From the NCBI GenBank assembly GCA_030837625.1, contig JAUPKF010000002.1, positions 168-64,167 on the forward strand: a DNA stretch of 64,000 bases, written 5' to 3'. The translations under genes were made by a program, and so were the position numbers. Below the pieces are notes generated by a model, which saw only the letters and a program-made list of their open reading frames with translations, was not told the DNA's origin and made no database searches. This document shows positions 7,520 through 53,920 of the stretch, piece by piece (the first letter of the stretch is position 1; every line of letters begins with the position of its first letter). This DNA comes from Patescibacteria group bacterium (GTDB lineage: Bacteria; Patescibacteriota; Minisyncoccia; Moranbacterales; UBA2206).

Positions 7520-9160
7520 TTATTCGACCCAGTACTTTTTTTTCATAAATTCTTCTTCTTTTTTATTCTCCTCCTCGATCTTATTCTTAGCCTGGTTTCG
7601 CAAGGTTCCGATATCTTCTTTATTCAATTCCGCGGATATTTTCAGCAAATCTTTTTTATTGTTCAGTTTGGGATCGTCAATAACTTTCATGAGCAAAACA
7701 TCCAAAATAGCTCCGATTTTCGGCCCGGGCCCCAGCGCCAATTTTTTTATCAAATCATCGCCGTTTATTTTCAGCTGTTTTACGGAAATGGCGTCACGCG
7801 AAACTTTTTCCACCATAAATTTGAAGTGACGGAGTTTATACGGCACGGCTTTTGGCACGCCCGAGCCAAGCCGATCAGCAATCCTGACGTCGATCAAATC
7901 ATTGATATTTTCCAAGCCGACTTTGCGAACCACCCGCCGCACACCGGCTTCCCCCACTTCATCAACGTTATAATAGAACATGTGATTTTTGACCAAAAGC
8001 GAAACCTTGTCGATTATATTTCTTGAAAACCTTAACCGCTCCAAAATCCTTTCAGCCATTTTCGCTCCGGCGTATTCGTGGTTATAAAAGGTCGCGTTTT
8101 CGCCCGCGCCTCTCTTAGTTTTCGGCTTGCCAATATCGTGCAGAAGCGCCGCCAGCCGCACTTCCAACTTTTCCGACGGACATTTTTCCAAACTAGCCAC
8201 CAAGTGTTTATAAACAGTATTATACGGGCCATAGTAATGATGATGGCTTTGAGTCACGCCGTATCCGGCTTCGATTTCGGGAATGATATATTGAAGCAAT
8301 CCTGTCTCATGAAGCAATTCAATCCCCCGCGCCGGAGCGGGAGATAGAATAATTTTCTCCAGTTCGTCTTTAATTCTTTCCGCTGAAATATATTTTAAAT
8401 TGGAAGCGTTTTTATTTATGGCCGCGAAAGTCTCGTTATCAATTTTCCAGCTTTGTATTTCTTTTTTATCATTTTTTAATTTTGCATTGTCATTTCGATT
8501 TTTTCGGCCAGAGGCTGATCCGCCTTTGGCGGAGATTTTTGATTTTTGATTTTCTAAAGTTACAGCAAACCTCACGGCGCGCATCATCCTCAACGCGTCT
8601 TCATCAAATCTTTCGTTCGCATCCCCTACTGCTTTAATAATTTTATTACTCAAATCCTCCCGCCCATTGTAAGGATCAACTATTCTATATTCACTCTCAT
8701 TCTCTTTAATTTGTTCCGCTTTAGCGAGTGCAATAGCGTTTATCGTAAAATCCCTTCTCGACAAATCTTCTTCCAAGCTTTTGGCAAACTTAATCTCATC
8801 CGGATGCCTCTTATCACTATATTTTGACTCAACCCGATAAGTAGTTATTTCAACTATGATGTACTTGTCTTCTTCTTTGCTGTTTTGGATTTTGTTTTTT
8901 GGATTTTGAGATTTATTTGGAATTTGGAATTTTGGATTTGGGATTTTAACAGCTACTGTCCCAAACTCATTCTCATACACACTATCCGGAAATAATTTCA
9001 AAATCTCCTCCGGCTTCGCGCTTGTCGCCACATCCCAATCTTTCGGAATTTTATCCAATAGCATATCCCGCACGCATCCGCCCACGACAAACGCCTCAAA
9101 GCCGTTTTCTTCAAGTTTTCCAATCACTTCAACAACATACTTTGGAATTTTTTTGATCAT
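7520..9160 (-). CDS. cca: CCA-adding tRNA nucleotidyltransferase / poly(A) polymerase family with HD domain, carrying in-frame repeat insertions
   Basis: N-term GGCVRDMLL...DWDVAT (PolyA_pol head), HD region HDIGKP; start set at the internal Met (MIKKIPKY, 9160) because the upstream 33 codons overlap the neighbouring gene; the segments NPKFQIPNKSQNPKNKIQNSKEE and KNDKKEIQSWKIDNE are encoded by GAATTT-family repeat DNA. Confidence 0.85.
   Translation of the reverse strand: MIKKIPKYVVEVIGKLEENGFEAFVVGGCVRDMLLDKIPKDWDVATSAKPEEILKLFPDSVYENEFGTVAVKIPNPKFQIPNKSQNPKNKIQNSKEEDKYIIVEITTYRVESKYSDKRHPDEIKFAKSLEEDLSRRDFTINAIALAKAEQIKENESEYRIVDPYNGREDLSNKIIKAVGDANERFDEDALRMMRAVRFAVTLENQKSKISAKGGSASGRKNRNDNAKLKNDKKEIQSWKIDNETFAAINKNASNLKYISAERIKDELEKIILSPAPARGIELLHETGLLQYIIPEIEAGYGVTQSHHHYYGPYNTVYKHLVASLEKCPSEKLEVRLAALLHDIGKPKTKRGAGENATFYNHEYAGAKMAERILERLRFSRNIIDKVSLLVKNHMFYYNVDEVGEAGVRRVVRKVGLENINDLIDVRIADRLGSGVPKAVPYKLRHFKFMVEKVSRDAISVKQLKINGDDLIKKLALGPGPKIGAILDVLLMKVIDDPKLNNKKDLLKISAELNKEDIGTLRNQAKNKIEEENKKEEEFMKKKYWVE
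8455..8560. repeat. GAATTT/GGATTTT low-complexity repeat inside the cca coding region
   Basis: attttttaattttgcattgtcatttcgatttt...gatttttgatttttgattttctaaag. Confidence 0.55.
8878..8952. repeat. GAATTT/GGATTTT low-complexity repeat inside the cca coding region
   Basis: gctgttttggattttgttttttggattttgagatttatttggaatttggaattttggatttgggattttaacagc; the gctgtt...aacagc ends are inverted. Confidence 0.65.
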
Positions 9161-9245
9161 AGCATCTTCATTATCCCTCTCTCCCATAATCGGGAGGGAT
9201 GTCCAACGTACTCGTTGGACAGAGAGGGCACAACCGCTGCTGGTA

Positions 9246-10010
9246 TTATACACTACCATCCACCGACGAAAAATTCAAATAATTTTCCCGTTCTATCGAA
9301 CTCCACACCATCTCAAACATCGACCGATACGTTGCAACTACATCCCCGCTTTCGATCACCACCGCCATTGGCGTGTCTTTGTAGGAAATGATTCCGACTT
9401 TGTTTCCAAAGATCACGTTATCGGTTGGAAGCATCCTCTCATTAGGCGCGATTTTGAATTGATGATTCTCGGAAGCATTGGTTTTGGCAAACTCGATTGA
9501 TTTTTCGTCACCTTGTAAAATCTCCCTGATCAGAACTTTCTCTTTCTTCACCACGTTCAGATATTTATTCACTTGCCGCAACACCCCCGGAGTTATTCGC
9601 CCGATTGATCCATAAAACAAAATTTCTTTTTCCTTGAATATCTCATCCCATAGCTTGGCCACGTTTTCTTCGCCTTGATAATACACCACTTTGGGCTTTT
9701 CTTTCTGGGAATTATATATAGCCATCAATTCTGGCAAATTTTGTTGGATTATCTCTTGCTTTTCTTCGTGTTCCTCCAAAAGTCTCTGCGGTGACTGAGC
9801 GGTATAGATAGCTTTTACTTTTTTAGGAAGCAGTGTCACTAGCCCCTTCATCCGCAATTCTTCCAAAAGGAGATAGGTAGTCGGCCGTTTTGTCCCGGCC
9901 TTAATCGAAATAGCCGGCACCGACCCGCTTCCCATCTGCAAAAGAGCCACATAAACCTTGGCTTGTTTTTCGTTTAGTCCCAGATGTTTCAGGGCTTCAA
10001 ATAGTTCCAT
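9246..10010 (-). CDS. TrmB-family transcriptional regulator
   Basis: N-terminal winged HTH (LGLNEKQAKVYVALLQMGSGSVPAISIKAGTKRPTTYLLLEELRMKGLV), TrmB-type C-terminal domain. Confidence 0.75.
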   Translation of the reverse strand: MELFEALKHLGLNEKQAKVYVALLQMGSGSVPAISIKAGTKRPTTYLLLEELRMKGLVTLLPKKVKAIYTAQSPQRLLEEHEEKQEIIQQNLPELMAIYNSQKEKPKVVYYQGEENVAKLWDEIFKEKEILFYGSIGRITPGVLRQVNKYLNVVKKEKVLIREILQGDEKSIEFAKTNASENHQFKIAPNERMLPTDNVIFGNKVGIISYKDTPMAVVIESGDVVATYRSMFEMVWSSIERENYLNFSSVDGSV

Positions 10011-12992: not shown

Positions 12993-15083
12993 ATGGATAA
13001 TATTAAAACACTTTTTAAGAAAACAAAAAATCAACCAATTGATATATGGCTTTTCTTTTTATTTTTGTTGAGTTTTTCCTTAAGCGTAAGGAAAGTAGTC
13101 GACTATTTTCCTGTCGAAAGAACTGATCAAAGAACTTTTAATGAGTATGCCGGCATATACGTTTATATGTCCGATATATTCTTGACACTAGCCATAGTTT
13201 GTTGGATAGTATCTATACTATATAATAACTATATAAAACAGTCAAGTGTCAAGCTGTGGATAACTCTTCTTGTCCACAGAATACTCCTATATTTTAAAAA
13301 TATTGTTCCACCTGCCCGCTATGCTTCGAAATTTCACGCCGATAGTATTATCAGCAAAACCGTAAAACCTGACAAAGAAGGTACTCTGTCCCAATTGCAT
13401 AGCGAAGCAGGCGGGCGTGGAACAATCAAAAATAACGAGGCAGACGTGGAACGATTTTCTTTACAGGCTAGCATATTGTTTATTATTCCTTTGCTTTTAG
13501 TCATTTGGTCATTCATTTCGACTTTTTGGGCAAAAAATGAAACCGTTGCTTTATTTCGATCAATTAAACTGCTTGAGTTTTACCTACTATATGTTTACGT
13601 CGCCTTGCGATTAATTCCATTGTTCCATGCGGAACATAAATCAGCAACAATACTTACGAAAAACCAATCACACTACACCCCTCACGAAAATAGCTTCGAC
13701 AAAGTATCTATGATTGTTCCACGTGGAACAATCATAGGTGTCAAAGTGTTTGATGTATTTATATGGTTAATAATATTTATAGGCGTATTTCAGTCAATTA
13801 TCGCCATTTGGCAGTTCATAATCCAACACTCTGTCGGATTATTTTGGCTAAAGGAAAGCCTAATTTCGCCGGATGTTCCAGGAGTAGCTAAAATAGTTCT
13901 CAATAGTCATAAAATAATCCGGGCATACGGACTGTTTCCACATCCAAATATACTGGGCGGATTCTTACTGTTCTCAATAATTCTAACATTACTATACAAA
14001 AAATGTTCCACGTGGAACAATGCTAATGGTATTTCAACTGTTCTACATCAGTCTGCCGATAAAGCAAGCCAAACGATTGAAATAACCACCTGGACATCTC
14101 AAACCATTCGCTTTTTAACGAAAAAGTTAAGTTTGAGAAAAGTATGGCTTATCCAAGCCTCCCTGTTTATTCAGGCTTTGGCCTTATTTCTGACATTTTC
14201 CAAATCAGCCATAATCGGGATTATAATTGCTTTGGTATATATTAATGTTCCACCTGCCCGCTATGCTTCGAAATTTCACGCCAATAGTAGTATTGATAAA
14301 ACCGTAGAGTCTAATACAGAAGGTACTATGTCCCAATTGCATAGCGAAGCAGGCGGGCGTGGAACATATGATAAAAAATGGATATACAAAATGTTCCACG
14401 TGGAACAATGGCATGTGTTTTCCTTGGGTAGTAGAAAAGTAAGCAATACAAACAAGGCCAATAAAAATTCTCGTAATGGTAATTCCGTTGTTCCACGTGG
14501 AACAATGGGCAACAACCCACTGAAAGCCCAAAGTCACTCACTTTTCGGCAGAAAAGTCATTTTAATTCTGGTAATCCTTATTCTAAGCCTTTATTTGGCA
14601 AAGCCCGATTTAAGCGCTCTTTTTACCAAAAGCCTCAAAGAAAGGCTCTTTTATCTGAACGTTGCTTATGAGACAATTTTAGATAATCCGATCATTGGAG
14701 TGGGAGCGGGACAGTTCGTGTTGAACATTCCGCAGTATGCCAACCAAACTGTGGAACAATGGCAATTCCAACCCGTCCATAACATATTCCTACTAATTTG
14801 GTCGGAATTAGGTTTGGTCGGAGTGGGCGTATTTTTATGGTTTTTATGGGCTATTTGGAGAAAATCTATATTAAGCAATGATAGTCTAAACTTGTCAACT
14901 GCATTAATTCTGCGCTATTTCAAAGCAATTTTCCTCGGCTTTCTCTTTATTATGCTTTTCGATCACTATTTATGGGACATCCAACAGGGAAGCCTGCTAT
15001 TATGGACAACCCTCGGACTAATTGCCAGCATAGATAAAAGTTCACAAAGCTACCTAAATACAGAGAACCGACGGGGTTTATAG
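12993..15083 (+). CDS. O-antigen ligase (Wzy_C/WaaL)-like polytopic membrane protein carrying six in-frame repeat-element insertions
   Basis: C-terminal Wzy_C-like region (NPIIGVGAGQFVLN...QPVHNIFLLIWSELGLVGVGVF); two about 120-bp MITE copies (13304-13434, 14246-14366) are translated as VPPARYASKFHA...SQLHSEAGGRGT; four 16-bp palindromes tgttccacgtggaaca are translated as MFHVEQ/CSTWNN/VPRGT. Confidence 0.7.
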   Translation: MDNIKTLFKKTKNQPIDIWLFFLFLLSFSLSVRKVVDYFPVERTDQRTFNEYAGIYVYMSDIFLTLAIVCWIVSILYNNYIKQSSVKLWITLLVHRILLYFKNIVPPARYASKFHADSIISKTVKPDKEGTLSQLHSEAGGRGTIKNNEADVERFSLQASILFIIPLLLVIWSFISTFWAKNETVALFRSIKLLEFYLLYVYVALRLIPLFHAEHKSATILTKNQSHYTPHENSFDKVSMIVPRGTIIGVKVFDVFIWLIIFIGVFQSIIAIWQFIIQHSVGLFWLKESLISPDVPGVAKIVLNSHKIIRAYGLFPHPNILGGFLLFSIILTLLYKKCSTWNNANGISTVLHQSADKASQTIEITTWTSQTIRFLTKKLSLRKVWLIQASLFIQALALFLTFSKSAIIGIIIALVYINVPPARYASKFHANSSIDKTVESNTEGTMSQLHSEAGGRGTYDKKWIYKMFHVEQWHVFSLGSRKVSNTNKANKNSRNGNSVVPRGTMGNNPLKAQSHSLFGRKVILILVILILSLYLAKPDLSALFTKSLKERLFYLNVAYETILDNPIIGVGAGQFVLNIPQYANQTVEQWQFQPVHNIFLLIWSELGLVGVGVFLWFLWAIWRKSILSNDSLNLSTALILRYFKAIFLGFLFIMLFDHYLWDIQQGSLLLWTTLGLIASIDKSSQSYLNTENRRGL
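13304..13434. mobile_element. MITE copy (gttccacctgcccgctatgcttcgaaat ... agcgaagcaggcgggcgtggaac) inserted in-frame in the ligase-like gene
   Basis: same TIR core (ctgcccg..atgcttcgaa / ttcgaagcaggcggg) as the intergenic copies at 18853, 24778 and 39521. Confidence 0.65.
13718..14512. repeat. four dispersed 16-bp perfect palindromes tgttccacgtggaaca (near 13720, 14010, 14392, 14493); putative joined-TIR footprints
   Basis: identical palindromes matching the gttccac...gtggaac ends of the two full MITE copies in the same ORF. Confidence 0.55.
14246..14366. mobile_element. second in-frame MITE copy, nearly identical to 13304-13434
   Basis: gttccacctgcccgctatgcttcgaaatttcacgcc...ttgcatagcgaagcaggcgggcgtggaaca. 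Confidence 0.65.
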
Positions 15084-15159: not shown

Positions 15160-17628
15160 TTATAATACCGTACTCGCCGATACTTTATCGCCTGGCTGCG
15201 GCCGCATAACCCTCACGCCTTGGGTGGCTCGGCCGAGAGCGGAAACGCTGGAAAGGGGAATGCGAATGATCTGGCCTTGTTCGGAAGTAAGAATTAAATC
15301 GGCTTCCAGCGCGTCAAGGTTCACAACATTGGCACCGATAAGTTTGCCGGTTTTAGCCGTCACACTGGCGGTTTTAATTCCCGATCCGCCGCGCTTTTGA
15401 ATTTTATATGATTTCAGATCCGATCTTTTGCCATAACCGTTTTCAGTAATAATCATCAGCTGATTGCCTTTTTGCCCTTTGAACGTTACGTCCATCCCGA
15501 CAACTTTGTCATCTGATTTCAATTTCATGCCCCGCACGCCGGTAGCTGACCTGCCCATCGGACGAACATCCGATTCTTTGAAGCGAATGGCTTGGCCACC
15601 CCGGGTAGCGATAACTATTTCGTCCGATCCAGTGGTAGCGTCCACCCAGCGAAGCGCGTCGCCTTTTTCCAGCTTTATGGCCAAAAGTCCGCTGCGGCGA
15701 ACATTGTCGAATTCGTCCAGGGTTGTTTTTTTGACCGTGCCGTTTTCCGTCGCCATAAAAAGATACTTGTAATTATCATCCTTGTTAAACGCCACCACCG
15801 CTGTTACTGACTCTTCCTGCGAAAGAGACAGGAAATTGACAATCGACTGACCCTTGGCAATCCGGGTCGATTCGGGAATTTCGTACGCCTTGGTCTGAAA
15901 AACTTTTCCCGTATTGGTAAAGAAAAGCAAGTTATCGTGCGCCATAACGCCCAAGAGTTTGGTAATTTCGTCGCCCTCCTTGGTAGTCGCCCCAATCACG
16001 CCTTTTCCTCCACGTTTTTGAACTTTGTAAACAGTCGGATTCATCCGTTTGATATAGCCTTCTTTGGAAATAGTGATAATGGCTTCTTCGTTTGGCACAA
16101 GATCTTCCTGTTTAAATTCTCCCACCGCGCCTTTTATAATCCGGGTTTTTCTTTCGTCGCCGTATTTTTCTTTAACACGCGCCAATTCATCCTTCACGAT
16201 ACCCAGAATTTTTTTCTCGCTTTTCAAGATTGCTTCCAGTTCGGTGATAAGTTTCAGTTTTTCCGCCAGCTCGTCTTCAATCTTCTTTCTTTCCAACCCG
16301 GCCAGAGTTTGCAAACGCATTTCCAAAATAGCCGTAGCTTGTTTTTCTGAAAGCTTGAATTTCTTTATCAAATTCCTGTGCGCTTCCTCTTTGGTGGGGG
16401 ATTTCTTGATCGTTTCAATAACCGCGTCAATATTGTCCAACGCGATTTTCAAGCCTTCCAAAATATGGGCTCGGTCGCGGGCTTTTTCCAAATCAAATTT
16501 GGTCCTTCGAGCAATGACGATTTTCCGATGCGCCACATATTCTTCCAAAATATCTTTCAGATTTAGGACTTTCGGTTCAATTCCGCCGACAAGCGCCAGC
16601 ATATTGACGCCGAAATTCTTTTGGAGATCGGTATAAGAATAAAGCTTATTGAGAACTTTCTGGGGATAGGCGTCTTTTTTGAGATCAATTACCACTCGCA
16701 CCCCGTCTTTGCTGGATTCGTCGCGAATGTCTCTGATACCGACTATCTTTCCCTCGCGCACCAAATCAGCCATTTTTTCAATAAGCGTGGCTTTGTTGGT
16801 GGCATAAGTCATTTCGGTCACGATTATTTGGAACGCTCCGGCTTTGGTTTCGGTAATTTCGACTTTAGCCCGGGTAAGGATTTTTCCCCGTCCGGTGCGA
16901 TACGCTTCTAAAATGTCTTTTTTGTTGTAAATTATGCCGCCGGTCGGAAAATCAGGCCCTTTCACGAATTCCCCCAGATCGTCCACCGACGCTTCTGGGT
17001 TTTCGATCAGATGGCTTATGCCGTCGATAAGCTCCGTAAGGTTATGCGGAGGAATATTAGTCGCCATTCCCACGGCGATTCCCATCGAACCGTTGAGGAG
17101 AAGCTGAGGAAGGCCGGCCGGCAACACGGTCGGTTCCTTGTGCTGGCCGTCAAAATTGGGTACAAAGTCCACCGTATCTTTTTCAATATCAAAAAGCATT
17201 TCCTCGGCAATGGCGGAAAGCTTGGCTTCGGTGTATCGATAAGCCGCTGGAGAATCGCCGTCCATTGAGCCAAAGTTTCCCTGACCGCGAACAAGCGGGT
17301 AGCGCAAAGAAAAATCCTGAGCCATGCGTACCATCGAATCATACACTGCCACGTCGCCGTGCGGATGATATTTCCCCAACACTTCTCCCACTACTGTGGC
17401 CGATTTTCGAAATTTGGCGTTAGCGCGCAGTCCCGTGTTCCACATGGAATATAAAATCCTGCGATGGACCGGCTTCAAGCCGTCTCGCACGTCCGGCAAA
17501 GCTCGCGCCACAATCACGCTCATCGCGTAATCCAGATAGGATTGGGAAATTTCCTCAGTTATCTCGCGAGGAGTGACATTATTTGGTTGAATATTCTCTT
17601 GTGGTTTGGTGTTTTTATGCATAATCAA
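15160..17628 (-). CDS. gyrA: DNA gyrase subunit A
   Basis: 822 aa; the active-site Tyr region is the [10 protein letters not shown] motif in the N-terminal DNA-breakage domain; multiple C-terminal beta-pinwheel repeats. Confidence 0.95.
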
Positions 17629-17629
17629 A

Positions 17630-17765
17630 AAATTACAAATTCAAAATTACAAATCACAAATAAATTCAAAAATCAAAACTCCAAAAATCAAAACTGTTTT
17701 TCTGCGTTTTGAATTTTGAAAATTGTAATTTATTTGGAATTTGTAATTTTGGATTTTGAATTTAT
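17630..17765. repeat. about 135-bp imperfect palindrome of the GAATTT/GGATTTT family immediately upstream of the gyrA start
   Basis: aaaattacaaattcaaaattacaaatcacaaataaattcaaaaatcaaaac ... gttttgaattttgaaaattgtaatttatttggaatttgtaattttggattttgaatttat. Confidence 0.7.
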
Positions 17766-17771
17766 ATCCAA

Positions 17772-18092
17772 CTATTCAGGCATAAATCCTTCTCCTCCAA
17801 TATTATTCTGTACATCGTCTAGATTTTTTTGGTTCTTAATCCCCTCCAACGCTCCTTTCATTTGCCCGGTTGTGTCTTGCAGGGATTTCTTTTGGGTTCC
17901 GAAATCTTCAAAAAGCTTTTTCTGGTCTTCGCTGATAAGCGGCTCGCGGTTAGCGTCTCTTTGAGCGGCTAGCGACAAAAACCAAACAGCCACTACCAAG
18001 GCCGTGAAAAAGATGGCGTATCCGCAAGCATACCGCATCCGGACGTGTTCTGGTTTTCGGCGAATTTGTTCAATTTTATTCTGAATACTCAT
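17772..18092 (-). CDS. hypothetical single-pass membrane protein (106 aa)
   Basis: one predicted TM (FFTALVVAVWFLSLAA) followed by a charged tail. Confidence 0.5.
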   Translation of the reverse strand: MSIQNKIEQIRRKPEHVRMRYACGYAIFFTALVVAVWFLSLAAQRDANREPLISEDQKKLFEDFGTQKKSLQDTTGQMKGALEGIKNQKNLDDVQNNIGGEGFMPE

Positions 18093-27988: not shown

Positions 27989-28062
27989 GGGTGTTTAGCT
28001 CAGCTGGTTAGAGCGCCACATTGACATTGTGGAGGTCACTGGTTCGAGTCCAGTAATACCCA
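27989..28062 (+). tRNA. tRNA-Val(GAC), nested inside the D-loop of an outer tRNA-Val-like gene
   Basis: acceptor gggtgtt/aataccc, anticodon stem ccaca/tgtgg with loop ttGACat, T-loop ttcgagt; flanked by the 18-bp perfect inverted repeat ccccccaccaattgggtg / cacccaattggtgggggg. Confidence 0.85.
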
Positions 28063-28165: not shown

Positions 28166-28458
28166 GGGACCATAGCTCAGCGGTAGAGCAGGCGGCTCAA
28201 AAAATATTTAGGGCTGTTTGAGAAGTAATTTTCAAGCGAATATCTGTCAAACTCGGGGAAACCTAAGGCGCCAAAAGCGCTACGGCAATCCCGAGCCAAG
28301 CCCCGACGCGTGTCGTGGAAGGTGTAGAGACTAGACGGCAGACATCCCGATATCATCGGGATGAAGGGATAGTCCAGCTCCCAAACTCGAGAGGGGTTGC
28401 GAAAGCAATAGTGAGAAGCATAACCGCTTGGTCGCTGGTTCGAATCCAGCTGGTCCCA
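28166..28458 (+). tRNA. tRNA-Met(CAT) (elongator-type or tRNA-Ile2 precursor) interrupted by a group I intron; exons 28166-28197 and 28419-28458
   Basis: exon1 gggaccatagctcagcggtagagcaggcggct + exon2 cataaccgcttggtcgctggttcgaatccagctggtccca folds into a canonical cloverleaf with anticodon CAT; G1:C72, so it is not an initiator. Confidence 0.8.
28198..28418 (+). other. group I intron (221 nt) in the anticodon loop of tRNA-Met(CAT), inserted after U33
   Basis: 5' exon ends in U and the intron ends in G; conserved group I core elements R (gtgtagagactagacgg) and S (gaagggatagtccag) pair gacta/tagtc to form P7. Confidence 0.75.
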
Positions 28459-28501
28459 CAGATAAAAAACTCGACTTTTTAAAAAGCCGAGTTTTTTAAA
28501 T

Positions 28502-29491
28502 TTATTTTTTTCTTCTCCTTCCGTGAAACGCTTGATGGACTTCTTTGAGCTGCTTGTTGGTAACGTGGGTGTAAATTTGGGTGGTGGTGATGGAAGAATG
28601 GCCGAGCATAGCTTGCACCGAGCGGATGTCGGCGCCATTAATCAGTAAATCCGTAGCAAAAGAATGGCGAAGCGTGTGCGGATGGACATCTTTGACAATT
28701 CCGGCTTTGGCGGCGTAATATTTGACGATTCTCTGGACGGAGCGGGGGGTTAATCTTAAACCAGCGTTATTATCCGTAGGGGTTCGATTAATCGAACCCC
28801 TACTTTTATTTTCGAATTTTGCCAGTCCTTTAACATCTCTCACAAACAAAGCCGGATCAATATCCATCCGCTTATCCAGATACGTCTCCAGCGCTTTCTT
28901 GGCACTTTCTGAAATAAAAACCACCCGAATTTTGTCGCCTTTTCCTCGCACGGAGAGTTCCCCGGATCCCAAATTCAACTTATCCCGATTGATGCTGACG
29001 AGTTCCGATACTCGCATTCCGGCCGAAAAAAGCATCTCCAGCATCGCTCGGTCGCGAAGCGACTTAAAATCAATTCCAGACGCCGCCCCGATAATCCTTT
29101 CCACTTCTTCCGGTTCCAAAAATTCAATTTCGCGCGCCGGAGATTTCCCAATCTCGACCTTTTCCGCGATCAATGTCTTAATGTCCCGCTTTGCCAGATA
29201 TTTAAGAAAGCTTCGAAGGGCTATAACGTAATAGCCCTGGGTAGCTTTTTTCAAGCCTTTTCCATTCTCATCTTTGTAGCGGCTCAGATGCAAGCGAAAG
29301 TTTCTTACCAATTCATCTGTAATTTCGGACGGCTTCGCTATTTTTGCCCAATCAAAAAACACCCGCAAATATCGACTATAATTTTCAATAGTCTTTTGCG
29401 AACGGTTCTTTTCTATTTCAAGATATTCCAGAAACTGAGTTTTTAGTCGCTCAATTCCACTTTTTTGTATCTTTTCTGTTTCATGTTTCAT
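28502..29491 (-). CDS. xerC: tyrosine site-specific recombinase (XerC/XerD-like integrase)
   Basis: catalytic region HTLRHSFATDLLINGADIRSVQAMLGHSSITTTQIYTHV; N-terminal SAM-like core-binding domain; 3' end lies 44 bp from the tRNA-Met 3' end. Confidence 0.85.
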   Translation of the reverse strand: MKHETEKIQKSGIERLKTQFLEYLEIEKNRSQKTIENYSRYLRVFFDWAKIAKPSEITDELVRNFRLHLSRYKDENGKGLKKATQGYYVIALRSFLKYLAKRDIKTLIAEKVEIGKSPAREIEFLEPEEVERIIGAASGIDFKSLRDRAMLEMLFSAGMRVSELVSINRDKLNLGSGELSVRGKGDKIRVVFISESAKKALETYLDKRMDIDPALFVRDVKGLAKFENKSRGSINRTPTDNNAGLRLTPRSVQRIVKYYAAKAGIVKDVHPHTLRHSFATDLLINGADIRSVQAMLGHSSITTTQIYTHVTNKQLKEVHQAFHGRRRKK

Positions 29492-30930: not shown

Positions 30931-31083
30931 CAAATTTCTAATTCACCTAATTTCTAATTCACCTAATAAAATTCAAAATTCATCAATACCTAATACAAAA
31001 AGTTATTTAGATTTTAACATTTTATTTTGCTATTTTGACTTTTATTAGGTGAATTAGGTAATTAGACAATTAGGTGAATTTTT
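30931..31083. repeat. about 150-bp imperfect palindromic element with 'ttcacctaatt' arms (copy 1)
   Basis: ttcacctaatttctaattcacctaataaaattc ... ttttattaggtgaattaggtaattagacaattaggtgaattt; the arms are exact reverse complements of the arms at 47028-47201. Confidence 0.75.
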
Positions 31084-33442
31084 AAACCCTCTTCAGCTTC
31101 GCGATACTCGCCGAAAGCTTCTTGAGACCAACTTTATTGAAAGCCACTGTCACAACATCTCCCTGCGACGCCACAATCATTCCCTCGCCAAAAGCTTCGT
31201 GACAAACGCGGTCACCATCTTTGAAATTGGTATTTGATATTTTGTATCCAGTGTCTAATGTTCCAAGTTTTGAATTTTGCTTGCCCGCCAAAGCGTTAGC
31301 GGCGGCGGGGTCATTGGAATTTTGATATTGTTTGGAATTTAGTGCTTGTGATTTGGAATTTGCGCTTTCGAAAAGGTGTTCGGGGACATCTTCAAGAAAG
31401 CGCGAGGGGGGATTGATTTGCGTCGATCCGTAAATATTTCTTTCCATCGTGAAAAGCAAATAAACTTTCTTTCTGGCCCGCGTAATTCCTACATACATTA
31501 GCCGCCGCTCTTCTTCCATTTGATTGGGATCAAGCATACTGCGCGAATGCGGCATAATCCCTTCTTCAAGACCCGCGATAAAAACATACTCGAATTCCAA
31601 GCCCTTGGCGCTGTGAAGTGTCATAAGATGCACCGCGTCGGACGCCTGATCGATTTTATCCGTGTCAGCTTGAAGCGCGATTTCTTCCAAAAACAAATTC
31701 AGGCCTTCCCCGCCTCGCGTCGACAAGCGATTGTCTTCGCGAGTCGAGGCGGGTTCAGCTTCGTATTCATCATATTTTTTGGCGACACTCAGAAGTTCCT
31801 GAACATTCTCATGACGCATCATTCCTTCGTCAGTTCCATCCAGCAGAAACTTTTCATACCCGGATTCAACATAAACTTTCTGGATTAGATCGGTCAGTTG
31901 CAACTTATTCTTCAACTCCGACATCCGTTTTATAAATTCACAAAACTTCGCGATTGGATCCAGTTTTGAATTTTGTATTTTGTATTTGGAATTTATTTGT
32001 AATTTGTAATTTGTAATTTGTAATTTCAAACCAAGTTCAATCGGACTTACATTTTCTTCTTTGGCGCCTTTCAGCCAATGTGCAAGAGTAACTCCCCCGA
32101 TAGAACGCCTCGGTTCATTGATTATCCTCTCCAGCGAAACCTCGTCATTAAAATTATTGATCAGCCGCAAATACGCCACCATGTCTTTTATTTCTTTCCG
32201 CTGGTAAAACTTCACCCCGCCGATTATCCGATAGGGAACGGAATTTCTAAGCATCGCTTCTTCAATAATCCGCGACTGAGCGTTAGTGCGATAGAGAACG
32301 ACAAAGCTGTTTAGGTTAATATTCTCTTTGTTTCTTAATTCATCGATCTCTGAAATTATGAACTCCGCTTCGTCCCGCTCGTTGTCCGCTTCGTATGAAG
32401 TTATCAAATGCCCGCCTTTGTTTTCGGTCCAAATTTTTTTATCTTTCCGGTTGACGTTTTTGGAAATGACGCCGTAAGCCGCGTCCAAAATCGTTTGCGT
32501 CGAACGATAATTTTGCTCCAATTTCACCACCGTCGCATCCGGATAATCTTTTTCAAAATCCAGTATATTTTGAATATCCGCCCCCCGCCAAGAATACACT
32601 CCTTGCCAATCGTCTCCACACACCCAGATATTGCGATACTTTTGCGAAAGCATTTTCACCAAAGTATATTGCGCGTGATTAGTGTCCTGGTATTCGTCCA
32701 CCATAATGTAGCGGAAAAAGTTTTGATATTTTTCCAAGATTTCCGGATAAGCTTTAAAGATTTTTACCGTCAGCATCAAGATATCGTCAAAGTCCAGCGC
32801 GTCCTGATCTTTCAATCTTTTTTGATAAGCGGTATAAATTTTTGCCACTACATCTTCCCAGTACCCACCCGCGCCTGCCGCAAATTTTTCCGCTTCAACG
32901 AGTTCGTTTTTAGCTTTGGAAATGGCGCCCAAGATCGCTTTCGGCTTGAACTGATCAATATTGATCTGCATCTCCTTCATCACTTTCTTCATCAGCGACT
33001 GCTGATCCTGATCATCGAAAATATTAAACGAGCTTTTATATCCAACCTTCTCAATCTCCCGCCTGAGAATTTTCACGCAAACCGAATGAAAAGTCCCAAT
33101 CGTCGGCAACCGATTCGAATCTACGGATGTATGCGAATCTTCGAATCTACGAATGCCCCCATCTTGTGATTCGTGAATTCGTGAATTCGGATTCATTCGT
33201 TGATTCGCATCGGATAATAATTTCATAATCCTCTCTTTCATCTCGCTCGCCGCCTTATTGGTAAACGTCACCGCCAAAATCCGCCTTGGCGAAATCTTTT
33301 TCTCCAAAATCAAATACGCCACCCGATGCGTCAGCGCCCGCGTTTTCCCCGACCCCGCCCCGGCGATAACAAGTACCGGCCCTTCCGTCGTCTCCACCGC
33401 CTGGCGTTGGGGAGGATTAAGTTTTTTGAGAATTTCACTCAT
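31082..33442 (-). CDS. uvrD: UvrD/PcrA-family ATP-dependent DNA helicase with three in-frame repeat insertions
   Basis: Walker A AGAGSGKT, motifs Ia/II (VDEYQDTN), VI (VGITRAR); start set at MSEILKK (33442); insertions: REP/MITE 33110-33214 (...HTSVDSNRL...), GAATTT repeats 31958-32032 (NYKLQINSKYKIQNSKL) and 31290-31340. Confidence 0.9.
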   Translation of the reverse strand: MSEILKKLNPPQRQAVETTEGPVLVIAGAGSGKTRALTHRVAYLILEKKISPRRILAVTFTNKAASEMKERIMKLLSDANQRMNPNSRIHESQDGGIRRFEDSHTSVDSNRLPTIGTFHSVCVKILRREIEKVGYKSSFNIFDDQDQQSLMKKVMKEMQINIDQFKPKAILGAISKAKNELVEAEKFAAGAGGYWEDVVAKIYTAYQKRLKDQDALDFDDILMLTVKIFKAYPEILEKYQNFFRYIMVDEYQDTNHAQYTLVKMLSQKYRNIWVCGDDWQGVYSWRGADIQNILDFEKDYPDATVVKLEQNYRSTQTILDAAYGVISKNVNRKDKKIWTENKGGHLITSYEADNERDEAEFIISEIDELRNKENINLNSFVVLYRTNAQSRIIEEAMLRNSVPYRIIGGVKFYQRKEIKDMVAYLRLINNFNDEVSLERIINEPRRSIGGVTLAHWLKGAKEENVSPIELGLKLQITNYKLQINSKYKIQNSKLDPIAKFCEFIKRMSELKNKLQLTDLIQKVYVESGYEKFLLDGTDEGMMRHENVQELLSVAKKYDEYEAEPASTREDNRLSTRGGEGLNLFLEEIALQADTDKIDQASDAVHLMTLHSAKGLEFEYVFIAGLEEGIMPHSRSMLDPNQMEEERRLMYVGITRARKKVYLLFTMERNIYGSTQINPPSRFLEDVPEHLFESANSKSQALNSKQYQNSNDPAAANALAGKQNSKLGTLDTGYKISNTNFKDGDRVCHEAFGEGMIVASQGDVVTVAFNKVGLKKLSASIAKLKRV
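33110..33214. mobile_element. REP/MITE (ccgattcgaatctacgaatg family) inserted in-frame inside uvrD between helicase motifs I and Ia
   Basis: ccgattcgaatctacggatgtatgcgaatcttcgaatctacgaatgcccccatcttgtgattcgtgaattcgtgaattcggattcattcgttgattcgcatcgg. Confidence 0.7.
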
Positions 33443-33460
33443 AACTAACCAATTATAGCA

Positions 33461-33500
33461 CAAAAGAAAAAAAACCCCGATTAACGCTGTCATCGGGGTG
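33461..33500 (-). terminator. rho-independent terminator (minus strand)
   Basis: ccccgatgacagcgttaatcgggg followed by ttttttttt on the minus strand. Confidence 0.6.
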
Positions 33501-33517
33501 GAACCGAGAGAAATCTT

Positions 33518-33690
33518 ACACGAATTTATCCTCACTGAGCCATTTTATAGCCCGCTCAATGAGTTTTTTCTGCCTCTCTGAAACATCTTCCCATGTATCT
33601 TCTTTCGCTGAATTCCAATACTCAGAGCTTTCATCTTCAAATAAGTATCTACCTTCATATACCGTTTCAACCTCTATCTTTATCCTCATT
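33518..33690 (-). CDS. hypothetical small protein (57 aa, MRIKIEVETVYEGRYLFEDESSEYW...)
   Basis: ORF not in the supplied track (below 60 aa), found by reading; followed by the terminator. Confidence 0.35.
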
Positions 33691-44541: not shown

Positions 44542-44913
44542 GTGGTTGAAAAACATATGACACTGGACAAAAAAACATTAGAAGAACTTAGGACGACGCT
44601 CTTGAAGGAAAAAGAAGAATTGGAAAAAAACTTAGGAAAAATCGCGCGCCCGATTGACAAGGAAGAAGGGGATTATGAAACAACTTTTTCCGAAATCGGA
44701 ACCGACAAGGAGGATAATGCCACGGAAGTGGACCAATACACCCAAAATCTCTCCGTGGAAAACACCTTGGAAAAGAAGCTCCAGGATGTTTTGGACGCGC
44801 TGGAACGCTTTGAAAACGGAACTTACGGAAAATGCGAAAATTGCGACAAGGAAATCCCGCTCGAAAGGCTTAAAGCTAATCCATCCGCTAGAACATGCAT
44901 AAAATGTAAATAA
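44542..44913 (+). CDS. DksA/TraR-family C4 zinc-finger protein
   Basis: coiled-coil N-terminus; C-terminal CENCDKEIPLERLKANPSARTCIKC. Confidence 0.75.
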   Translation: MVEKHMTLDKKTLEELRTTLLKEKEELEKNLGKIARPIDKEEGDYETTFSEIGTDKEDNATEVDQYTQNLSVENTLEKKLQDVLDALERFENGTYGKCENCDKEIPLERLKANPSARTCIKCK

Positions 44914-44953
44914 CCCGATTCGAATCTGCGAATGAATCCGAATTTACGAATGA
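44914..44953. repeat. REP/MITE half-element (cccgattcgaatctgcgaatgaatccgaatttacgaatg) at the dksA-like stop / lspA start
   Basis: begins at the taa stop codon; supplies the atgaatccgaat (MNPN) start of the next ORF. Confidence 0.65.
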
Positions 44954-45450
44954 AACACATTGTTCTATCTTTTCCTATATTATTTTTGATTTCCATCGAC
45001 CAGCTTTCTAAATATATTATCCGCGTAAAAGGCGGATTTTATATTTGCAACACCGACCTGGCTTTTGGATTGAAACCATCGTATTTTTTAGTATTTGCTA
45101 TAATATTAATAGCTATATTATCCTTAGTCGCGGTCGGAAATAGCAAATTCAAAATTACAAATTTCAAACAAATAACAATATCAAAATGCAAAACTCAAAA
45201 ATCGCTCTGGTTTGAAAAATTTGAATTTGTAATTTTGAATTTATTTGGAATTTGGAGTTTTGGATTTGGGATTTTACTCATTGCCTCCGGTGCGATATCA
45301 AATATAATCGACAGAGTATTATATGGCTGCGTCATCGACTTCATCGACCTTCATTTCTGGCCGGTATTCAATTTGGCGGATGCCTTTATCACGATTGGTG
45401 GTATAATGATAATCATGAAACACGTAGCATACAACACGAAACAACCATAG
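44932..45450 (+). CDS. lspA: lipoprotein signal peptidase II with an in-frame GAATTT-repeat insertion
   Basis: LspA motifs ([23 protein letters not shown]); the segment [20 protein letters not shown]...[18 protein letters not shown] is encoded by repeat 45118-45262; the N-terminal MNPNLR is repeat-derived and the true start may be MKHIV (44950). Confidence 0.75.
45118..45262. repeat. GAATTT/GGATTTT repeat with internal dyad symmetry inside lspA
   Basis: aaattcaaaattacaaatttcaaacaaata...aaatttgaatttgtaattttgaatttatttggaatttggagttttggatttgggatttt. Confidence 0.65.
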
Positions 45451-45494
45451 CAAATTTCTTGTTGTATGTTTCATGTTTTATGCTTCATGAGCTT

Positions 45495-47027: not shown

Positions 47028-47201
47028 ATTCACCTAATTGTCTAATTACCTAATTCACCTAATAAAATTCCCAAACGACCCAAGGTCAAATAAAATTCCT
47101 AATGCCCGAATCAAAAAACATTTGGAACTTGGAATTTTACTGAAGAATTTTTAATTTGACATTTTATTAGGTGAATTAGAAATTAGGTGAATTAGAAATT
47201 T
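47028..47201. repeat. about 170-bp imperfect palindromic 'ttcacctaatt' element (copy 2), inverted relative to copy 1
   Basis: ttcacctaattgtctaattacctaattcacctaataaaattc ... ttttattaggtgaattagaaattaggtgaattagaaattt. Confidence 0.75.
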
Positions 47202-47210
47202 GGGCACAAT

Positions 47211-48170
47211 ATGTTTCCACTAAATCTAAAAAGAATACTTAAATTATCCATCTTTCTGCTCATCATCTTTTCATCCTTCAGGGTTTTCGCTTTCTTCTCC
47301 GACCCCAAAGAAACGGCTGATTTTTCTTCTTCCAAAAAAACAGTGCGCATTAACGACAACGGTTTTGAATTCAGAACTGCGTCTTTAGGAAATACCGTCG
47401 GAGATTTGCTGGAAGAGAAGAACATAAAACTTTCCCAATATGATCAAATCATCCCCGGCAAAACGGAAAAAATATTTCCCGGAACCAATATAGAAATCAA
47501 GCGGGCGATAAAAGTTAAAATCGAAGTTGACGGCAAAACATTCGAAAAAAATACTCTGCAAAAAAATATCGGGCTGGTCTTGGGAGAAAGCGATATCAAA
47601 TTGGGACGGCTCGACAAAGTGTCTCCGGATGTTAATGGTTCGCCGCGAAACAATGAAACAATTTCCGTCACCCGAATAAACGTGGAAGAAAAAGTTGTCC
47701 CCGGAGAAATCGATTTCAAGACGACAATCAAAAACGATCCCAAACTGGGCTGGCGCGAGAAAAAGATCGAAACAAAAGGGGAAAAAGGAATCAAAGAAGT
47801 AAAATACAAGATCACATACAAAGACGGAAAAGAAGTTTCGCGCGTAGTTTTAGAAAAAAACATAACCAAAGAACCGGTCACGCAAGTTGAAACCCAAGGC
47901 ACGTACGTCAAATGCGGCAAAGCCAACAAGGGCCAGGCGACCTGGTACGCGTATCAAGGCGGAATGTTCGCCGCCAGCACAACCATTCCCAAAGGGGGTT
48001 ACGCCAAAGTAACCAGCACCGCCACGGGAAAATCCGTCATTGTCCAAATAAACGACTACGGCCCGCAAGGCAAAGGACGCGTCATCGATCTCGACAAGGT
48101 CGCTTTCCAAAAACTCGCTTCGCTCGGCGCCGGCGTGATTGGAGTGAAAGTGGAAGAAGTGCTCAACTAA
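47211..48170 (+). CDS. secreted G5-domain + RlpA-like double-psi beta-barrel (3D) protein
   Basis: signal peptide/TM, central G5-like region, C-terminal GQATWYAYQGGMFAASTTIPKGGYAKVTSTATGKSVIVQINDYGP (RlpA/DPBB signature). Confidence 0.7.
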   Translation: MFPLNLKRILKLSIFLLIIFSSFRVFAFFSDPKETADFSSSKKTVRINDNGFEFRTASLGNTVGDLLEEKNIKLSQYDQIIPGKTEKIFPGTNIEIKRAIKVKIEVDGKTFEKNTLQKNIGLVLGESDIKLGRLDKVSPDVNGSPRNNETISVTRINVEEKVVPGEIDFKTTIKNDPKLGWREKKIETKGEKGIKEVKYKITYKDGKEVSRVVLEKNITKEPVTQVETQGTYVKCGKANKGQATWYAYQGGMFAASTTIPKGGYAKVTSTATGKSVIVQINDYGPQGKGRVIDLDKVAFQKLASLGAGVIGVKVEEVLN

Positions 48171-48320
48171 TTTTTTCGTAAGAAAAAATTAGTTGAGCAT
48201 CCTGAGCGAAAGCGAAGGATCTATTTTTGCTTGAAAGTTTCCAGATAACTCGCTAGAATAAACAACTGATGCGAAGTTGGAAAATTTAAAAGGGCAATTC
48301 CTGAAATTAGGAATCGCCCC

Positions 48321-48530
48321 TTAGAAAAGATTCAGATAAACTTGTACGGCGCCTAGGAAGAGGAACCAAAGGATAAACGCTATGCGCGCCGCCCTTTCCT
48401 CCTGATAGTGCTTGTAGCACTGAAAGTCCATTGCGTCAATTTCCACCGCGCTTATAAAAAAATAAATGGAAAGCGCGCCGGACAAAAAAAGAGCTGTGAT
48501 ACTGAAAACATAATTTAAAAAAACCCGCAT
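48321..48530 (-). CDS. hypothetical small membrane protein (69 aa)
   Basis: two hydrophobic helices; weak support. Confidence 0.3.
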   Translation of the reverse strand: MRVFLNYVFSITALFLSGALSIYFFISAVEIDAMDFQCYKHYQEERAARIAFILWFLFLGAVQVYLNLF

Positions 48531-48592
48531 ATCCTCCTCCTCCTTTTCTTGAGAGAAAATCTTTTAAGTCAATATACCACATTTTATACTTT

Positions 48593-49459: not shown

Positions 49460-49533
49460 GGATTTGATTTATCAAATCCGCCCCGAGGTTTAATAAATTA
49501 CCCCTACACACCAGGGTTTAATAAATTAAACCC

Positions 49534-52313: not shown

Positions 52314-52315
52314 AC

Positions 52316-52440
52316 GTATACTAAAATCCAAATTTCCAAATCCAAATGTCAAATAAAACCCCAAATCAAAAATCCAAAATTTGTCATTGAGATTTGGGAT
52401 TTTGTTGGATATTGAGATTTTGTCATTGGGATTTTTGAAA
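52316..52440. repeat. GGATTTT/CCAAAT low-complexity repeat, intergenic
   Basis: ctaaaatccaaatttccaaatccaaatgtcaaataaaaccccaaatcaaaaatccaaaatttgtcattgagatttgggattttgttggatattgagattttgtcattgggatttttgaaag. Confidence 0.6.
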
Positions 52441-52447
52441 GTTTTTT

Positions 52448-53434: not shown

Positions 53435-53464
53435 TCAGCAGAAAATCCAAATTTCCAAATCTCA

Positions 53465-53863
53465 ATGCCAAACAAAATCCAAAATCCCAACAAAAATAGC
53501 AACAGCTACGACCTCATAGAAAGAACGGCTAAATTTGGAGAAGATGTTATTGAGTTTGCCGGAACATTACCTAGAAATGAAATTAATCGACCACTTTTAA
53601 GTCAAATAGTGAGATCTGGAACAAGCATTGGAGCTAATTATATGGAAGCCGATGGAGCAGTATCGAAAAAAGATTTTGAAAACAAGATTGGCATTTGCCG
53701 AAAAGAAGCTAAGGAGAGTATGCATTGGTTTAGAATGATTGCCAAAGCCAACCCGAACCATAAAGACAAATGCAGAGAGCTATATAAAGAATCCCAGGAA
53801 TTTGTATGGATATTTTCATCCATCATAAATAGTTCCAAAAACAACAGCAAGAACAAAAAATAA
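53465..53863 (+). CDS. four-helix-bundle protein (TIGR02436-like)
   Basis: YDLIERTAKFGEDVIEF...SQIVRSGTSIGANYMEADGAVSKKDFENKIGICRKEAKESMHW, typical of this family. Confidence 0.7.
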   Translation: MPNKIQNPNKNSNSYDLIERTAKFGEDVIEFAGTLPRNEINRPLLSQIVRSGTSIGANYMEADGAVSKKDFENKIGICRKEAKESMHWFRMIAKANPNHKDKCRELYKESQEFVWIFSSIINSSKNNSKNKK

Positions 53864-53920
53864 TTGTGATTTGGGATTTTATTGGATATTGAGATTTTGT
53901 CATTGAGATTTTTGAAAGCT
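53862..53920. repeat. GGATTTT repeat / duplicated leader
   Basis: aattgtgatttgggattttattggatattgagattttgtcattgagatttttgaaagc, near-identical to 52380-52440. Confidence 0.6.

Follow-up and report, generated by a model that had tools for sequence, protein, structure and literature searches.

Short low-complexity strings recur along a 64-kb window of Patescibacteria DNA, the window being the whole stretch of 64,000 nucleotides analysed here (positions 168 to 64,167 of contig JAUPKF010000002.1, assembly GCA_030837625.1). They lie between genes and inside the housekeeping genes cca, uvrD, lspA and ksgA. These strings are probably short, non-autonomous palindromic elements of several families, similar in kind to the Rickettsia palindromic elements (RPEs) and to the intervening sequences (IVSs) of ribosomal RNA (rRNA), and filtered by selection where they fall in coding sequence. 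The window contains several repeat families and full palindromes, and DNA homology runs between different genes and across orientations. The coding copies are inserts relative to homologous genes, and the lspA copy has retained its pairing among orthologues. These sequence relationships suggest that the elements spread by copying, while the analogy with rRNA IVS stems suggests that the RNA hairpins may be processing elements of the RNase III type or stability elements.

The arms are degenerate arrays of 7-8-nt units, T/G-rich on one strand and A/C-rich on the other, and two inverted arms form an AU-rich hairpin of 50-65 bp, at times with a GC-rich tip. Such hairpins take up nearly all of the spacers that separate co-oriented genes, reaching from the stop codon to the start codon, and sometimes donate those codons. 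Two of the elements carry in their loops the two protein families typical of 23S rRNA IVSs, the four-helix bundle and GxxExxY proteins. Whole palindromes or single arms have also become fixed inside housekeeping genes and there may simply be translated. Under the proposed filter, the coding copies that persist would be those that are in frame, free of stops and placed in permissive loops or linkers. Soluble proteins would retain copies with the A-rich strand as sense, giving hydrophilic N/K/Q/I/P/S peptides and no hairpin-plus-T-tract in the mRNA. The membrane protein LspA could keep a full palindrome as a Lys-rich cytoplasmic loop followed by a hydrophobic extension of its third transmembrane helix (TM3). 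Slippage within the arrays would add length variation.

The nearest kin of the window are Candidatus Moranbacteria-like Patescibacteria of the candidate phyla radiation (CPR), and the next relatives of its KsgA, CCA and LspA are Moranbacteria/Paceibacteria proteins of 55-72% identity. The open reading frames (ORFs) of cca, uvrD, lspA and ksgA are intact and contain full Pfam domain sets, and the in-frame status of the copies is upheld by homologue alignments. The same insert and hairpin structures occur in independent assemblies from other samples. One Logan assembly (L001, run SRR24011159) corresponds to window positions 47175-52395 and is 100% identical over 5.2 kb. Because it ends inside the palindrome at 52.3 kb, hairpins of that type break short-read assemblies.

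Repeat units, families and palindromes

All of the sites listed by an earlier, sequence-only reading consist of low-complexity T/G/A-rich sequence or its A/C-rich complement. Units of the form TTG[GTA]0-2ATTT occur in 10 clusters of at least three units, against 0.26 expected from Markov shuffles. The arms of family A are 55-70 nt long with 25% G+C, their T-rich strand holds 3% C, and their autocorrelation has maxima at lags of 7 and 14. Tandem Repeats Finder reports period-7 arrays with 8-9 copies per arm and 64-79% matches. The period-7 to period-8 arrays contain perfect tandem runs, for example four copies of TTTGTAAT at 31995-32026 in uvrD. Slippage clearly acts within the arrays, given this run and another of four AAATCCC units, and the earlier description of the strings as expansion-prone is supported by such runs.

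Homology between arms was scored for 11 arms in pairwise ungapped alignment (+1/-2), with order-2, -3 and -4 Markov chains trained on the arms as the null. A null of this kind preserves the low-complexity grammar, with 99th percentiles of 17-21 and a highest score of 25 in 300 trials. To sub-family A1 belong the cca arm at 8878-8950, the uvrD arm at 31958-32030 and the two arms of each of the gyrA-upstream and lspA palindromes, with scores of 16-35. Four A1 arms of 69 nt align in register at 68-78% identity in a repeat search of the window. Sub-family A2 comprises the arms at 52.3 kb and at 53.4/53.9 kb, with scores of 15-44. Its same-side pairs score highest (right/right 44, left/left 27), and three of its six pairs (15-16) lie at the null level. 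Scores between A1 and A2 are also at the null level, and uvrD 31310-31365 is borderline against A1, with a maximum of 18. The strings thus recur as T/G/A-rich sequence at every listed site, and homology beyond the Markov null is found only within A1 and within A2. Chance AT-rich similarity, which had been named as the alternative, fails to explain the higher scores inside the two sub-families and could suffice for A1 against A2.

Other repeats in the window are of different types. The segment at cca 8464-8503 matches, at 80%, an arm (2798-2837) of a different palindrome (2747-2852), and the ksgA insert is a TTTTCAA / (AATTTTC)n heptamer array, distinct from family A. The types include A1, A2, B, C, D, E and the TTTTCAA type at the least, as well as a CATGAAA type. 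The strings do not form the single family proposed earlier, and the ksgA copy, cca site 2 and uvrD 31290-31340 are not demonstrably homologous to A1. The earlier observation is partly confirmed, with A1 and A2 as true homologous sub-families. Family-A-type clusters are rare elsewhere, with about eight in 1.3 Mb of related loci against 11 arms in the window, so each genome has its own mix of families.

A simple tandem repeat is an insufficient description, as the arrays occur in inverted pairs, share a higher-order arrangement of units between loci and have conserved non-repeat ends (the 88-nt repeat described below). The basic unit is better seen as a palindrome, or hairpin, than as the simple expanding element, or microsatellite, first envisaged. 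The A1 palindromes measure 140 and 143 bp and the A2 palindrome 119 bp, with folding z-scores from -2.9 to -7.7. The palindrome of about 135 bp reported directly upstream of gyrA is borne out. It has arms of 64 nt (17630-17693 and 17700-17763) that are 75% complementary around a 6-nt loop, folds at -39.9 and -38.7 kcal/mol on the two strands (z = -6.3 and -7.7), and fills the spacer between the stop of a minus-strand ORF (17772-18092) and the gyrA ATG. The lspA palindrome folds at -34.6 kcal/mol (z = -4.4), and 52316-52442 folds as a palindrome with z = -2.9. The dyad symmetry noted earlier in several copies is therefore seen both in inverted repeats and in folding energies. The single arms at cca 8870-8955 and uvrD 31955-32035 are without structure on folding. 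Rfam at gathering thresholds reports only tRNAs and one group I intron in the window, with no match to the hairpins.

Table 1. Repeat elements, unit sequences and host genes in the window (nt, nucleotides; TM, transmembrane helix).
Feature	Position	Strand	Detail
A1 single arm, cca site 1	8876-8950	-	Head-domain β-hairpin loop; A-rich strand sense; encodes ..KIPNPKFQIPNKSQNPKNKIQNSK..
cca site 2	8455-8560	-	Two same-strand AT-rich family-E arms flank twin GC-rich hairpin CGGCCAGAGGCTGATCCGCCTTTGGCGGA; encodes ..KSKISAKGGSASGRKNRNDNAKLKNDKKEIQ..
A1 full palindrome, gyrA-upstream	17627-17766	.	Inverted-repeat search, folding
uvrD linker copy	31283-31365	-	A-like T-rich stretches flank GC-rich tip, before Tudor domain; ..NSKSQALNSKQYQNSNDPAAANALAGKQNSK..
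A1 single arm, uvrD 2B-domain loop	31958-32030	-	A-rich strand sense; encodes LQITNYKLQINSKYKIQNSK; holds TTTGTAAT x4
Family-B full palindrome in uvrD	33107-33217	-	CCGATTCGAATC.../...GATTCGAATCGG; in frame, ..NQRMNPNSRIHESQDGGIRRFEDSHTSVDSNR..
Family-B left arm, lspA start	44912-44953	+	Overlaps dksA-like stop; provides MNPNLRM; 93% to family reference
A1 full palindrome in lspA	45136-45278	+	TM2-TM3 cytoplasmic loop
TTTTCAA-type heptamer insert in ksgA	48796-48862	+	NFQFSIFSFQSISNDPILNFKNK; not family A
Family-B arm in ksgA	48906-48968	+	In frame, ..FVNSDLFVDSNRF..
A2 palindrome and right-end leader	52316-52473	+	Arms 52323-52378, 52380-52435
A2 left arm	53436-53497	+	Holds start and first ~11 codons of four-helix-bundle ORF
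Four-helix bundle / 23S rRNA intervening-sequence protein	53465-53863	+	PF05635 E = 1.2e-14; NCBIfam TIGR02436 E = 2.8e-22
A2 right arm and leader	53862-53950	+	ATG and first codons (MLNIK) of ORF 53925-56060
Family-B inverted arms and ORF	57849-58311	+	Arms 57852-57888 / 58271-58307, 37 nt, 86%
GxxExxY / PD-(D/E)XK_3 (PDDEXK_3) protein	57869-58270	+	PF13366, TIGR04256
Family B			Unit CCGATTCGAATCTACGAAT...
Family C			Unit TTACGAAATACGAAAT...
Family D			Unit CTAATTCACCTAAT...
cca (CCA-adding enzyme)	7520-9259	-	Pfam
gyrA	ATG at 17622	-	Pfam
uvrD/pcrA	31082-33535	-	Pfam
lspA	44932-45450	+	Pfam
ksgA/rsmA	48593-49459	+	Pfam

Copies inside cca, uvrD, lspA and ksgA

The clearest link between genes is a segment common to cca and lspA, TTTATTTGGAATTTGGA[A/G]TTTTGGATTTGGGATTTTA, in which 36 of 37 nt are identical. 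The two copies are read from opposite strands, giving KIPNPKFQIPNK in CCA and another 12-residue peptide in LspA. Because near-identical DNA is translated from opposite strands, copying at the DNA level is indicated, as opposed to protein convergence. The loop at cca site 1 is 33 aa long in the window; across 68 species its length lies between 8 aa (GVKSDIGV) and 46 aa. The closest relatives, P0144 (KIPNSKFQIPNKSQNPK) and P0148, have an insert as in the window. Some homologues are without one (KIK-EGEETIDV), and others carry visibly other repeat families (KSKIKNTDKNAK, HEARNLPTGQAGTKHET, RTDSKLRNESEST, PHPNPLL.KERG, CHAELVSASQ...). Over-long cca matches in nine species were considered as ORF-bearing hairpins and rejected, as they contain instead an in-frame, domain-like insert of about 200 aa unrelated to the repeats. 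HD-like (H..H) motifs are visible by eye in this insert at site 1 (L061, L068, L069, L072, L073, L075, L077, L078, L081).

Site 2 of cca is empty in most homologues and holds assorted N/K/Q/S arrays in others; its GC motif also occurs in an intergenic spacer of genome L165. A third cca site, in genome L044, contains an (AAATCCC)n array insert.

Three segments of uvrD, namely a GC-rich insert (EPASTREDNRLSTRGG), the family-B palindrome and the A1 arm, correspond to gaps at loop positions in PcrA (1pjr) and in 45 representatives; the A1 arm is an insert relative to most of the latter. In the nearest UvrD relative, P0361 (65% identity), the A1 position is occupied by a similar A-type insert. The family-B palindrome folds at -38.4 kcal/mol and adds about 30 aa. 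The linker before the Tudor domain, in which the further A-like copy lies, is variable among homologues. The GC-rich insert at 31700-31770 (residues ~590-612, EPASTREDNRLSTRGGEG), absent from PcrA and the 45 representatives, is of the same kind as a LPRLVETTTRRREAG insert in L084 lspA, and the corresponding loop of P0388 holds an AT-type insert, ILKFEILSKFKSQNLKSKI.

In lspA, the segment after TM2 that derives from the A-rich arm is Lys/Asn-rich, and the one from the T-rich arm, leading into TM3, is hydrophobic. The AlphaFold model of LspA, of moderate quality (mean predicted local distance difference test score, pLDDT, of 65), has four helices, with pLDDT below 50 for residues 78-108. Most homologues of 45-59% identity carry the insert with its hydrophilic-arm and hydrophobic-arm peptides, and a few lack it. 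A metagenome scan for lspA returned mostly distant matches, with about 10 useful loci. The DNA of nine orthologues (L082, L162-L165, L175-L178) was recovered. For a hairpin of 42 inferred pairs, 81.9% of cells are standard-paired in 10 sequences, whereas shifting the 3′ partner by 1-3 columns leaves at most 61% paired. A six-sequence version is 89.7% paired, and the apical helix only 63%. Compensatory double changes number 11 cells against 5.5 expected, and the covariation score reaches 0.142, the mean of the shuffles being 0.108; none of 500 shuffles attains either value. By these sequence comparisons the lspA palindrome is old. When compared with the window's gyrA-upstream, uvrD and cca copies, lspA arms from other genomes match as well as the lspA arms of the window itself, so A1 is best regarded as an element type common to several genomes. 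A claim of within-genome concerted evolution of the lspA arms was dropped for the same reason. Near the 3′ end of the gene, at 45411-45485, there is also a hairpin of the CATGAAACACG type, the left arm of which encodes the LspA C-terminus while the right arm precedes the comM start.

The TTTTCAA insert of ksgA is found in a clade of homologues down to about 60% identity and is absent from the rest. It is 87% identical in nucleotides to the L163 orthologue, against 70% for the remaining gene. Where a residue within an insert is conserved, its codon is identical in 82-94% of cases, compared with 49-63% for conserved residues elsewhere (five lspA orthologues; ksgA against L163). The lspA insert has lower amino-acid identity than the sequence outside it, with nucleotide identity equal or higher. 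The ksgA pairs with L162 and L165, in which the insert is different or barely alignable, have no codon excess. A second ksgA site, after INLPELI, is a hot spot of many unrelated inserts in homologues. Four CATGAAA units also lie inside ksgA, at 49226-49255 (..HETRNMKHETK..).

The comparison with homologous genes, which had been suggested as a check, reveals presence, absence or replacement by other repeat families among relatives. Copies in frame within four genes had been described; this is upheld for cca, uvrD and lspA, the ksgA insert being of another type. The accompanying picture of invasion needs the correction that the coding copies are not all recent, as the lspA and ksgA inserts are common to orthologues of only 51-70% protein identity. 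The copies do encode biased peptides, N/K/Q/I/P-rich or F/G/I/L/W-rich, as was first reported.

Orientation appears to matter in coding sequence. Stop-free frames are found in 19 of 33 cases on A-rich strands and 7 of 33 on T-rich strands. All the single arms seen in soluble proteins are A-rich-sense, namely cca site 1, both arms of cca site 2, both uvrD copies and the L044, L079 and L073 copies. With this orientation, the sense transcript of the GC-tip variants has no hairpin plus T-tract. Per kb, non-coding DNA contains 4.2 times as many family-A bases as coding DNA, although 53% of these bases lie within coding sequence. The selection for frame preservation first suggested is better put as a survivorship filter that acts on reading frame, stop codons, orientation and position in loops.

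Hairpins between genes and the ORFs in their loops

The arms at 53442-53490 and 53864-53912 constitute one inverted repeat of 49 nt, 78% complementary, around the ORF of a 23S rRNA intervening-sequence protein. The two places had been counted as separate copies (53436-53480 and 53862-53920) and are instead the stem of one element that encloses an IVS-type ORF. The hairpin at 52323-52435 is the same element without the loop ORF. The right end of A2 is itself repeated: 52386-52473 and 53863-53950 are 92% identical over 88 nt, spanning the arm, the leader, the ATG and the first codons. At the first site the leader provides the ATG and first codons (MLNIK) of ORF 52448-53434. The two genes downstream of the right ends are otherwise unrelated (BLASTP E = 1.6).

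The second loop ORF of the window, of the GxxExxY family, lies between family-B arms. Only two other members of both protein families were present in the loci then compared, L052 and L059, and all four ORFs lie between inverted arms. In L052 the arms are 67 nt long and 79% complementary, while in L059 they are 24 nt long, 88% complementary and of the window's family-C type. The inverted-repeat scores of both exceed the 99th percentile of 400 random controls.

In the gene string at 56-62 kb, the family-B left arms start exactly at stop codons (TAA|CCCGATTCGAATC) and each right arm stops 5-8 nt short of the start codon that follows. The larger string at 51255-62456 has the look of a type IV secretion system or conjugation locus, with PrgI-like, VirB4-like, CD3337/EF1877-type membrane and TSP3-repeat proteins, and each of its spacers is filled by an A2 or family-B hairpin. 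The VirB4-like ATPase is present as two ORFs, 58312-59001 (N-terminal part) and 59160-60974 (TraC/CagE and P-loop part). They are divided exactly at a family-B palindrome (58996-59159), with a TAA at the start of the left arm and an ATG directly after the right arm. Either a single gene was broken up by the hairpin, or its two-part form is natural.

Turnover of hairpins is visible in the spacer between comM and G5 in four syntenic genomes. It holds a family-D palindrome in the window and an A-like palindrome in L163; L165 has an A arm, a twin GC hairpin and a second A arm, and L162 a short GC hairpin. This fits either frequent insertion and replacement, or a need for "some hairpin" at cistron boundaries. 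The gyrA-upstream regions of related loci contain no family-A hairpin among the part of the loci read.

The conserved twin GC-rich hairpin motif, C[AG]GCCA[AG]AGGCTGATCCGCCT[AT]TGGCGGA, occurs at 8506-8535 in the window, at 6143-6172 in L165, in L086 lspA and in the viral contigs L172 and L174. It thus occupies spacers, coding inserts and viral contigs, and its translations PKADQPLAE and SAKGGSASG are found in many CPR KsgA, LspA and CCA homologues. Scans of viral contigs gave no evidence of a phage vector. Matches of the A1 core in these contigs are mostly chance matches in one phage gene, and the three matches of the twin GC motif represent two distinct contexts, each beside hairpin-like sequence.

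Competing explanations and relation to known systems

Several points weigh against RPE-like and IVS-like mobile palindromes. The A1, A2, ksgA, cca site-2 and uvrD 31290-31340 copies have only their grammar in common, and for that reason part of the pattern could be slippage plus composition. Pfam scans of 54 window ORFs found no transposase, RAYT (the transposase associated with REP, repetitive extragenic palindromic, sequences), Y1 transposase, Cas or Tas, nor any other mobilising enzyme, the sole recombinase being a XerC/D-like tyrosine recombinase. There is no recognisable target-site duplication by eye at the gyrA-upstream, lspA and cca ends, where empty sites occur only in orthologues of about 30% divergence. 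No recent insertion or excision is seen, L001 being the sole second assembly and fully identical. Foreign lspA arms resemble the window's copies outside lspA as closely as its own lspA arms do, which fits more than one direction and timing of copying. For lspA, the case is one of palindrome retention with some compensation and not proof of function, because the shuffle control ignores the relatedness of the sequences, some orthologue hairpins are weak (z = -0.9 to -2.2) and the apical helix is poorly kept. We infer both translation of the inserts and RNase III processing from sequence.

The rival that survives best, although it is doubtful, is that the hairpins are functional cis-elements. They would act as intercistronic signals for RNA processing, stability or translational coupling, cut by RNase III, or as structural or binding sites in DNA, and the coding copies, lspA above all, would be kept by selection. 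Such a role is consistent with hairpins that span nearly every spacer from stop to start codon, with IVS-type ORFs in the loops in all four cases, with compensatory pairing of the lspA arms across 10 sequences, and with the conservation of synonymous sites and nucleotides in the lspA and ksgA inserts. However, positions and families vary between genomes, the comM-G5 spacer differs in all four, and the readable gyrA-upstream regions have no hairpin. The single cca and uvrD arms are unstructured, the apical helix of lspA is kept at 63%, and intrastrand repair can keep palindromes symmetric without function. It has likewise been considered, as an unlikely extension, that a functional IVS-like hairpin system exists throughout Moranbacteria and related CPR bacteria. 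It would mark cistron boundaries, give start and stop codons, host S23p/GxxExxY genes and be maintained in part as palindromes in essential genes by nucleotide-level selection. If true, this would imply control at the RNA level or unusual decoding or processing within coding regions, for example RNase III cleavage or structure-dependent translation.

It is quite improbable that the strings arose without mobility, by independent in-place slippage of 7-8-nt units in an AT-rich genome, with likeness produced by composition and codon constraints. The perfect tandem runs in the period-7 to period-8 arrays, the null-level scores between A1 and A2, the borderline uvrD 31283-31365, the different types at ksgA and cca site 2 and the near-continuous loop lengths at cca site 1 in the 68 species all agree with it. 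Yet scores within A1 and within A2 surpass the nulls from order-4 Markov chains that were trained on the arms, and slippage does not predict an exact inverted-repeat organisation. The opposite-strand cca and lspA segments, the 92%-identical right ends with an ATG ahead of two unrelated genes and the occurrence of the same families in spacers and coding sequence also speak against it. An assembly or binning artefact, or a CRISPR- or TIGR-type guide-RNA array mistaken for repeats, is hardly credible: a Logan contig does break inside the 52.3-kb palindrome and TIGR arrays have been reported from Patescibacteria (PMC12045711), but the inserts lie inside intact ORFs and recur in independent assemblies from other samples, and the 7-8-nt units (7-nt, as set against TIGR-Tas arrays) have no spacers, no Cas or Tas gene in the Pfam scans and no Rfam match.

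Mobile palindromes with a filter on coding copies remain the preferred explanation, and their closest counterpart in behaviour is the RPE, while in architecture it is the rRNA IVS; they are classed as members of neither, given differences in sequence, host and location. RPEs were described as in-frame "selfish DNA" in Rickettsia housekeeping genes (Ogata et al. 2000 Science 290:347, via PMC10969869). As far as that account extends, the likeness includes several families of palindromic repeats, dispersed in multiple copies of about 100-150 bp, positions both intergenic and in frame within unrelated housekeeping genes, extra peptides encoded at fold-compatible sites, and a reduced genome with no associated transposase. 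The window elements differ in their CPR host, their apparently unrelated sequences, their arms of 7-8-nt units and the presence of single arms. They differ further in hot-spot loops with replacement of families across species, overlap with start and stop codons, IVS-type loop ORFs, and an lspA copy that retains pairing across deep orthologues. They are treated as an analogue, rather than a member, because the host belongs to the Patescibacteria and the arms are built of heptamers.

In classical IVSs, terminal inverted repeats pair into a stem that RNase III cuts, and the loop may contain an S23p ORF (Coxiella burnetii IVS, PMC4990558). The window shares the long stem of inverted repeats around a PF05635/TIGR02436 ORF (53436-53950) or a TIGR04256 ORF (57849-58311), as well as stems without ORFs. 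Unlike 23S IVSs, the elements lie between or inside protein genes and not in rRNA helix 9, 25 or 45, and their stems consist of low-complexity arrays of heptamers. An mRNA would be destroyed if an element were excised from it, and read-through of the coding copies is evident. There is no rRNA in the window by Rfam, and a conserved 23S motif matched 0 of 178 related loci.

Palindromes of the MITE (miniature inverted-repeat transposable element), REP and bacterial interspersed mosaic element (BIME) types, such as enterobacterial repetitive intergenic consensus (ERIC), Correia and REP sequences, include occasional in-frame copies for ERIC and other MITEs (PMC10969869, PMC3733652). REP and MITE sequences resemble the window elements as small non-coding hairpin repeats that lie mostly in the intergenic spacers of operons, and the MITE likeness extends to a whole element that is one inverted repeat of 119-143 bp without coding capacity of its own. 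Unlike MITEs, the window elements have no cognate insertion sequence or transposase in the 64 kb and no target-site duplication recognisable by eye. Unlike REP and BIME sequences, which are imperfect GC-rich palindromes of 20-40 nt, they are not GC-rich (25% G+C), have arms of 55-70 nt and no GTAG/CGTC head, and are accompanied by no RAYT in the window. Their share of coding copies is much higher than that of MITEs or of the strictly extragenic REPs. Full-text literature searches found no description of palindromic or in-frame repeats in CPR/Patescibacteria, which is absence of evidence only.

If confirmed genome-wide, the elements would be the second clear case, after the Rickettsia RPEs, of palindromic DNA placed routinely in frame in essential genes, now in the CPR, a very large section of bacterial diversity that is still little understood. 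They would explain the N/K/Q-rich and PKADQPLAE-like segments in CPR protein predictions and would account for inflated length variation of CPR orthologues and for assembly breaks at element sites. They would also link these segments to the long-unexplained rRNA IVSs and S23p/GxxExxY proteins, and serve as a natural inventory of loops that tolerate insertions. The persistence of the lspA palindrome across deep orthologues poses a directly testable question, namely whether hairpins inside mRNAs are selected. The interest lies in the phenomenon more than in this particular window.

Two further features were noted in the window. A Wzy_C (O-antigen-ligase-like) ORF at 12993-15083 contains four copies of the palindrome TGTTCCACGTGGAACA (13705-14507) and a 124-nt direct repeat of 89% identity (13301-13424 and 14243-14366). 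The group I catalytic intron detected by Rfam lies on the plus strand at 28188-28394, with 71 bits against a gathering threshold of 50. It is located about 125 nt downstream of a tRNA gene (27989-28062) and overlaps an ORF on the opposite strand (28177-28638).

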